Positions 18,001-20,633 of a DNA stretch of 20,633 nt are shown piece by piece (the first letter of the stretch is position 1; each line of letters starts with the position of its first letter). The stretch is from a virus (lineage: Duplodnaviria > Heunggongvirae > Uroviricota > Caudoviricetes): IMG/VR virus record IMGVR_UViG_2529293039_000014; one strand, written 5' to 3'. Made by a program: the position numbers.

Positions 18001-20633
18001 ACGCCGTTACAATCACCTGCGGTAGCCAGAACTATCACGACGCCGTTCTGATGGCGTCGATGGAACTGGATATGAGTGACGATGATGTCGATACCTAGAG
18101 TAAAACAGGCTATTACATGGCTGAAGAAATCGAGCGACTGAAACAAGCACTTTCCGCTGCGGAAAATAATCTGATTGATTCCGAATGCCTCGTAGCTGAA
18201 TTAAGCAAAGCAAAGGATCACGCATATGGGCTGGTCGACACATACGACTGGCAACGTCAGCGTCTCCACGCAGCCGCTGAGAAAGTCCTCAAATGGTGCA
18301 GACAAGAAGCTGAACACCGTACCGGCGATCCAGAGAAAGCAGAAAACTATGCGTGCGTTAAAGAACTACGCGACGCATTAACTTTTTGCAAAAGTTCTGA
18401 AAGCAGCAAGAAGAAAGGCCTGACTATCACCCTGCCCGATATCACATCAAAGGCATTCTGGAGCGGTACCGGAAAAAACGCAAAATTCCATCCGGCAACC
18501 TATAAACGCTGGGTGAAAGAAGCTATTAAACGGGATTGTGTTATTGCCGGGATCGGCGTGGAGGTGAAATGATGAATTGGCCTGAAGCATTCACCGCAGT
18601 AGGAGTTGCAATAGCGGTGGCATTTATTCTGTATTCGCTTTTCCGCTGGGGATAAAGGAATGTTCGCTCTGATTCAACGTGGTCAGATATACACCGATAG
18701 TGCTGGCTACCCGATAAAAATTATTCGCTGCATAAACAACACTGTGTTGTACAGAAGAATGGATGGGCGAACACAGTCGGTAAAAATAAACGATTTTAAT
18801 GAACTGTTTGAACGGATCGATCACCAGGAATACCGACAAATTCTGGCAGAAACAGAGCAGGAAGCTCATCTGAAAAAATTACGAGCCATGAAAAGGAAGT
18901 AAAGAATGAATAAAGCATTTGAACGATGGGTCCACCAGCGTTACGGCAATCGCTATGACCTGACACGAGATGTTGACGGTTTCTACTGTCGTGAAATTGT
19001 GAAACGAATGTTTGAAGTGTGGTGCCACTGCCGTGGGCTGAGTGTTGTGTGAGGTTGGCATGCAGACAATCATCTATCAGATAACCCCCAGCAAATGGTG
19101 TACGGAGAGAGTCCTCATTGCATCAACAGGGCTAAAGCCTGGCACCATTGAGCGGGCAAGAAGAAAGTCATGGATGCAGGGAAAAGAATACCGCCATTAC
19201 GCTGTAGAAGGTGATCCGGGGCACTACAGTGAATGCCTGTACAACATCGAAGAAATTATGCGATGGATCGAAAACCAGAAACAACCAGGTGCCAAAAATG
19301 CAAGTTCCGGTTAACCTGTTAATGCTCCTGGACGTCTGGGAGGTTTAATGAGTAACGCATCATACCCGACAGGCGTTGAAAACCATGGAGGATCACTCCG
19401 TATATGGTTTCACTATAATGGCAAACGTGTCAGAGAAAACCTCGGTGTTCCTGACACAGCCAAAAACCGGAAGATCGCTGGTGAACTTCGCACTTCCGTT
19501 TGTTTTGCAATCAGAATGGGGAGTTTCGACTACGCCGCGCAGTTCCCTAATTCCCCTAACCTGAAACACTTTGGTCTGGGAAAAAGAGAGATAACCGTTA
19601 AGGCACTTTCGGAAAAATGGTTGGACCTTAAGAAAATTGAGATTTGTGCGAATGCACTTAACCGTTACCAGTCAGTAATTAAAAACATGTTACCAATGTT
19701 AGGTGAAAAAAACTGGTTTCATCCATAACAAAAGAGGATTTACTTTTCGTAAGGAGAGATTTGTTGACCGGTTACCAAAAGCTTTCTAATGGAAAGACTT
19801 CTTCCATAAAAGGGCGCTCAGTGGTCACGGTAAACTACTATATGACAACCATAGCTGGAATGTTTCAATTTGCAACAGATAATGGTTATACCTCAGGAAA
19901 CCCATTTAACGGTCTGGCTCCCTTAAAAAAGTCCAAGGTAAAACCAGATCCTCTCACCCGTGACGAATTTATTCGTTTTATTGAGGCTTGCCGTCATCAA
20001 CAAACAAAAAACCTGTGGATTCTCGCTGTATACACGGGTATTCGTCACGGGGAGTTGGTATCGCTGGCATGGGAAGATATAGACCTTAAAGCAAGGACTA
20101 TAACCATCCGTAGAAATTATACAAAACTTGGCGAATTCACTCCACCAAAAACCGATGCAGGCACCGGAAGGACAATTCATCTGGTTCAACCAGCTATTGA
20201 TGCTCTTAAAAGCCAGGCGGAAATGACCATGCTTGGAAAGCAACATTCTGTAGAGGTGAAGCAGAGGGAATATGGGAGAACTGCTGTGCATAAATGCACT
20301 TTTGTTTTTAGTCCTCAGGTAACAAAACAGCAGCAGTTGTCCGGACCTCACTACAAGGTTGACTCCATCAGGGAGTCATGGACAAGTATCTTAAAACGCG
20401 CAGGTCTGAGACACAGAAAATCGTACCAATCCAGGCATACTTATGCATGCTGGTCACTTGCCGCAGGAGCTAATCCTAGTTTTATCGCAAGCCAGATGGG
20501 CCACACAAACGCACAAATGGTATTCAATGTTTACGGAGCATGGATGAAAGACAACAATCACGAACAGATAGAACTCCTTAACAAAAGACTATCTGAAAGT
20601 GTCCCATGTATGCCCCATAAGAAAGTTGGGTAA

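Follow-up and report, generated by a model that had tools for sequence, protein, structure and literature searches.

The prophage end and its split integrase gene

The window analyzed here, meaning the whole 20,633-nt stretch of the IMG/VR record IMGVR_UViG_2529293039_000014, covers the early and lysis regions of a lambdoid prophage, with genes for Rz, a lysozyme, a Q antiterminator, a toprim primase, a DEAD-box helicase, a Cro-like protein and an S24-type repressor; no stx gene was seen in it. The window begins within a copy of ISCro1 (IS66 family, tnpA/tnpB/tnpC; positions 1-2616, plus strand), which shares 99.8% identity with the ISCro1 copy of strain J6 over 2616 nt. The adjoining large terminase gene (2617-3500, minus strand) is cut at 2616/2617 and retains the N-terminal 295 of 699 amino acids. 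At 293 of the first 296 positions, the encoded fragment and the intact TerL of J6 (699 aa) are identical, with the match stopping at the IS boundary; the fragment contains only the GpA_ATPase domain, whereas intact 699-aa homologues carry both GpA_ATPase and GpA_nuclease. Since ISCro1 truncates terL, the prophage is already packaging-defective and was crippled independently of its integrase gene. Searches with the terL fragment returned Logan contigs of only 1.6 kb, and the small terminase protein is very widespread (38,773 blocks).

The segment 6381-19055 is 99.8% identical to the F719 prophage, with 0 gaps over 12,675 nt. The F719 prophage carries a different integrase and is located at yecE, which indicates that the xis-int module was swapped near position 19055, at a mosaic boundary. 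The next-closest backbones are those of Stx2f prophages (98.6%). Beyond this boundary, at the end of the prophage, the integrase gene (int) is directly preceded by an intact excisionase gene, xis (19060-19314, plus strand, 84 aa), whose product is identical to XisR WP_001193437.1 of Escherichia coli AR_0013 and matches the Pfam family DUF1233, putative excisionase, with E=2.5e-29. The window ends with the stop codon of int, and the att sites are located beyond it. On the other side of int, mlrA (yehV) is reached in the contig L016, which is 100% identical to the window, and the same gene follows int in relatives. This locus, the known attachment site of VT1-Sakai/Sp15, encodes a protein that regulates curli and biofilm formation.

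The int gene itself is divided between two reading frames of the plus strand. According to the ORF list, its 5' fragment (19348-19728, ATG start) encodes 126 amino acids, made up of integrase residues 1-121 followed by the five out-of-frame residues NWFHP and a TAA stop codon at 19726-19728. The break coincides with a homopolymer of seven A residues at 19706-19712, in the context AGGTG-AAAAAAA-CTGG (TAGGTG-AAAAAAA-CTGGTTT over 19700-19719), which in intact alleles is an A8 run covering codons E120-K121-K122 and which is therefore the site of a -1 frameshift. The remaining part of the gene, residues 121-428, lies in the -1 frame at 19707-20633; this frame is open from 19707, right behind a TGA at 19704-19706, and encodes KKLVSSITKEDLLFVRRDLLTGYQ. 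Its stand-alone ORF, with a TTG start, spans 19761-20633 (290 aa). The coordinates given in the preliminary description for the A7 tract, both ORFs and the opening at 19707 proved correct in every instance, and so did its proposal that the downstream frame continues the upstream protein when the tract is read as A8, as one added A produces a 1287-nt ORF and a 428-aa integrase that is 100% identical to WP_000063649.1 of E. coli AR_0013. The repaired protein differs from the VT1-Sakai Int (BAB19626.1) by 1 amino acid. Moreover, the sole difference in a three-way alignment of 163 columns is a single gap within the A run, and alignment to an intact lambdoid integrase places both halves as contiguous parts of one protein with a -1 change in the A8 tract. 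As judged from these alignments, the ORFs 19348-19728 and 19761-20633 represent the two parts of a single tyrosine integrase and no chance juxtaposition. The integrases of VT1-Sakai/Sp15 and of other lambdoid prophages that integrate at mlrA (yehV) correspond to the same repaired protein, with the same xis and the same mlrA neighbor, and differ in having A8, whereas the A7 of the window results in the 126-aa and 290-aa ORFs.

Domain organization and predicted effect of the frameshift

Comparison with Pfam identified in the repaired integrase an Arm-DNA-bind_2 domain (PF12167, residues 7-70, E=2e-24), a weak SAM-like core-binding match (residues 83-131) and a Phage_integrase domain (PF00589, residues 203-396, E=4.7e-18), the first and last of which are also recovered from the separate N and C fragments (E=8e-25 and E=2e-18, respectively). 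In phmmer searches, the repaired protein matched Tn1549 Int 6EMY over residues 154-409 and lambda Int structures over residues 161-245. Its catalytic motifs (TGIR233HGEL, PPK268T, YQSR363HT, GH386T and NVY396G, numbered as in the intact protein) align with the conserved boxes of Tn1549 Int, and this alignment designates R233, K268, R363, H386 and Y396 as the putative catalytic residues; the first His of the HxxR box is replaced by Tyr. The arm-binding domain, the catalytic domain and the catalytic residues expected of a lambda-type tyrosine integrase are thus all encoded at the locus, while the A7 allele lacks a single uninterrupted frame joining the DNA-binding and catalytic domains. On sequence grounds, the A7 int is a pseudogene of this integrase family and not a functional member of it.

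The position of the break determines its expected consequences. The 126-aa fragment spans the arm-binding domain and the start of the core-binding domain, and R233, K268, R363, H386 and Y396 are all located 3' of the break; the frame is lost within the core-binding domain, at codon 122, which cuts the arm-binding domain off from every catalytic residue. We propose that replication slippage shortened the A8 tract to A7 in the int gene of a lambdoid prophage inserted at mlrA (yehV) in E. coli of the EPEC DEC1/DEC2 type. Translation from the int start would then yield a 126-aa arm-binding protein without the catalytic domain, and the tyrosine nucleophile, together with all the other catalytic residues, would be stranded in the downstream frame. 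Without full-length integrase, no Int/Xis-dependent excision would be expected even with Xis intact, and the prophage and the interruption of mlrA would be fixed in the chromosome. Considering what is known of lambda-type integrases, excision has presumably been lost in the A7 prophage. Together with the truncation of terL, the prophage carries at least two independent inactivating lesions, the loss of int being one of them.

Origin and recurrence of the A7 tract

The preliminary description left open whether the seven-A call reflects a genuine slip or a sequencing error, and the evidence now leans toward the former; we estimate a probability of about 0.7 that A7 is a genuine replication-slippage mutation. 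The segment 9761-20633 is 100% identical to AIFC01000024.1, a DEC-series EPEC draft, and two more DEC drafts differ from the window by 1 and 2 SNPs, so that A7 is present in 3/3 separately assembled isolates. The alternative is that the strain truly has A8 and an intact int, and that the draft consensus undercalled one A. Every isolate of the window's clone comes from a single sequencing project, which would fit such an error, and some frameshifts in the DEC drafts have been flagged as possible sequencing or assembly errors (PMC5592225). However, the F719 match of 12.7 kb has 0 gaps, and within its 12,675 nt three further runs of A8 and four of 7 nt agree with the finished genome. The 10-kb chromosomal flank also has no indels where genes are called.

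Related genomes provide evidence in both directions. The finished genome of DEC9B has A8, while two closely related DEC drafts, L018 and L019, have A7, as would be anticipated if the drafts were wrong; yet the tract is the sole difference in homopolymer length between these drafts and DEC9B over 16.5 and 12.7 kb, respectively, eight other long homopolymers in L018 and L019 agree with DEC9B, and the one other gap, in L019, falls at an ambiguous base N. A shared int SNP had raised the idea that L018 and L019 are sisters that inherited A7 together, which was rejected, as the base in question is that of the commonest haplotype and L018, L019 and DEC9B are roughly equidistant. The call also appears outside the DEC series. 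The int gene I6H00_RS01310 of FDAARGOS_943, labeled by RefSeq as a "frameshifted" pseudogene, has the same A7 at the same position in the same integrase family and also adjoins mlrA. It differs from the window's int by 24 nucleotides and lies in a different, IS-riddled prophage remnant; with a different allele in a different remnant, the event must have been independent of that in the window. FDAARGOS_943 and GCA_901482675.2 were sequenced in different projects and share A7, with 3 SNPs between them over 10.5 kb, so that A7 was reproduced in this lineage by two independent projects and some A7 calls are certainly real.

Other observations are those expected if A7 were a miscall. A7 is found in only 1 of ~450 finished RefSeq E. 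coli genomes that carry the segment and in 0/14 metagenome contigs, all 14 of which have A8, and it does turn up in error-prone assemblies, namely L005 and L006 (GCA_051590845.1 and GCA_051590825.1). These two consist of megabase contigs with single-base homopolymer deletions (C5 to C4, A6 to A5 and G5 to G4) in conserved chromosomal genes beside the prophage, and with several other homopolymer deletions nearby, their A7 calls are probably assembly errors. The absence of any secondary lesion in A7 alleles is compatible with very recent mutations and with errors alike. On the other hand, the A7 assemblies differ widely in date and source. Considering all of this evidence, we regard an undercalled A in the window as unlikely.

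If genuine, the slip is not peculiar to this prophage. The 126-aa A7 product was found in 125 public contigs of a collection of 15 billion proteins, on many different prophage backbones, and the same collection contained the 147-aa A9 product in 8 contigs (including STM10911.1), the 127-aa A10 product in 1 contig and the A6 product in 0 contigs. A scan of IMG/VR that allowed tract lengths from A6 to A9 detected A8 in 69/72 contigs and A7 in 3/72, one of the three (L047) being the same DEC draft as L019. In this set, which is unbiased, the tract accounts for three of the four inactivating lesions of int. The 87 full-length int genes that were compared represent 39 haplotypes, with A7 occurring on 11 of them, and 8 of these 11 were also found as A8 copies that are otherwise identical; no further stop or indel was present in the A7 alleles of the 87-gene set. 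Taken at face value, these haplotypes amount to at least 8 to 11 independent A8 to A7 calls. A tract scan of the GTDB species-representative genomes found nothing and therefore provided no cross-species information.

Because many unrelated E. coli prophages show the same slip, it appears to be an ordinary, repeatable route to integrase loss. The A8 tract acts as a mutational hotspot, with many independent -1 slips of this kind in the integrase family, and is probably more mutable than any other inactivating site of int, a gene that would be superfluous to an already defective resident prophage. A further observation concerns L008 (GCA_013185785.1, JABACX010000073.1), which has a chimeric int at 10001-11286 with the same N-terminal part and the same A7 frameshift; its 3' half is strongly divergent, with 131 nucleotide differences, and the genes next to it encode NleG and other type III effectors, in place of mlrA.

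A different interpretation of the recurrence is that the tract is a contingency locus, switching from an excision-competent A8 state to a locked A7 or A9 state and back, and is kept by selection because prophage retention and the restoration of mlrA depend on it. The tract is indeed polymorphic in length (A7, A8, A9 and A10), and it has changed recurrently and independently on at least 11 haplotypes without secondary decay. An A8 run is short for efficient switching in mismatch-repair-proficient E. coli, which counts against a phase-variable switch, and a neutral mutational hotspot would give the same pattern. Moreover, the off state is rare, at about 0.2-4%, and there is no sign of reversion or mixed populations. 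The IntR-annotated integrase BCI49034.1 of the Stx1a phage Stx1_14040 (428 aa, 355/428 residues or 83% identical, with the same xis-int arrangement) reads GAA AAA CGT at this position, an A5 run in which the hotspot is missing, and maintenance of the tract by selection was not supported, given its absence from this relative. Excision of the prophage from mlrA is reported to restore the formation of curli and biofilm (Uhlich 2016, as cited in PMC13516484; see also PMC5931665). We consider a contingency locus highly improbable, and hardly more credible is the related view that the A tract of mlrA-targeting integrases is a leaky or reversible switch by which A7 locks the prophage and the state with mlrA and curli off. 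If the tract were such a switch, rare -1 slippage or A7 to A8 reversion would let a minority of cells excise the prophage and restore mlrA, and excision would be a tunable, heritable trait, more than a simple loss.

Possible residual expression and probable consequences for mlrA

A genuine A7 allele might still direct the synthesis of some full-length Int by -1 slippage of the ribosome or of RNA polymerase on the A run, a possibility that is compatible with replication slippage as the best explanation at the DNA level. The int sequence at the candidate -1 frameshift site of the A7 allele is GGTGAAAAAAACTGG; its zero-frame codons, GAA AAA AAC, contain the slippery heptamer A_AAA_AAC, which follows the pattern X_XXY_YYZ, and a slip of the P-site tRNA-Lys would give GAA AAA AAA CUG, the wild-type reading. 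The downstream frame is otherwise intact in all A7 alleles. With this zero-frame heptamer, trace amounts of full-length Int may be produced. Sites of the dnaX type have an SD-like element about 10-14 nt upstream of the heptamer, whereas the only SD-like element 5' of the heptamer in int, AGGTG, directly abuts it. Besides, no stimulatory structure was predicted in 19713-19800, where the minimum free energy was -15.6 kcal/mol and shuffled sequences averaged -15.4 (z=-0.06).

A known parallel is the IS1 transposase, which in E. coli is made by a rare -1 frameshift on AAAAAAC, or "A6C" (PMC12428005). The insA-insB' frameshift site of IS1 shares the heptamer A_AAA_AAC, and its register relative to the zero frame, with the A7 int; however, the two-frame layout of IS1 is conserved and functional, whereas the conserved state of int is the one-frame A8 gene and its site has no predicted downstream structure. 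The A6C motif alone supports a very low frameshift rate (PMC12428005), and more than 95% of the integrase homologues have one frame, the split layout being no conserved state. Programmed -1 frameshifting was not supported, given the lack of a downstream structure and of conservation of the split state among homologues, and a leaky pseudogene is, in our assessment, quite unlikely.

The downstream fragment could also be translated on its own. A strong SD-like element, AAGGAG (19751-19756, plus strand), identified from the sequence only, is placed 4 nt upstream of TTG 19761 and 7 nt upstream of TTG 19764, and could permit separate translation of the C fragment. The same stretch comprises the rare Arg codons AGG AGA, and two consecutive TTG codons follow it. 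A two-piece integrase could in this manner arise from internal initiation at TTG 19761, but such a protein would lack core-binding residues 122-138, and nothing supports its function. Loss of integrase function by a genuine slip is retained as our reading, and the earlier statement that such a slip locks the prophage in place needs to be qualified, both because the terL lesion was already present and because the A7 heptamer may leave a trace of full-length Int.

For the genome from which the window derives, the mlrA prophage should be scored as excision-defective and packaging-defective. As excision from mlrA has been reported to restore curli and biofilm, the int lesion has probably rendered the disruption of mlrA permanent in this clone. 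Lesions of this kind are already known: the prophages Sp3, Sp11 and Sp12 of O157 Sakai are defective lambdoid prophages with disrupted integrases (PMC2669165). They represent the same class of defect, in which int is disrupted beside other lesions, with different genes and different lesions involved, whereas in the window a single-base slip recurs at one tract. One source calls the C fragment of int in the DEC drafts a "predicted defective integrase", and our literature search found no paper on this int frameshift, which is weak evidence considering its incomplete coverage; the A8 tract as a recurrent hotspot across mlrA-type integrases may be unreported. The current understanding of prophage decay is unchanged by the slip. 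One run of eight A residues accounts for most of the inactivating lesions seen in a widespread integrase, and the tract is worth checking by annotation pipelines and in predictions of prophage activity, bearing in mind that the same lesion can arise as an artefact in long-read-only assemblies.

The chromosome next to the prophage also varies among the related genomes. In L018, L019 and L118 (the last being the finished DEC9B genome, NZ_CP074760.1, at 751-754 kb), the gene next to the same int is a truncated fimD, and fimC, fimI, fimA and fimE come after it in place of mlrA, which suggests a rearrangement joining the prophage end to the fim locus. In the DEC1/DEC2 drafts L015-L017, yehY, located downstream of the prophage at 13398-14555, appears as two ORFs (235 and 149 aa) with no indel relative to other strains, and was likely split by a nonsense substitution.
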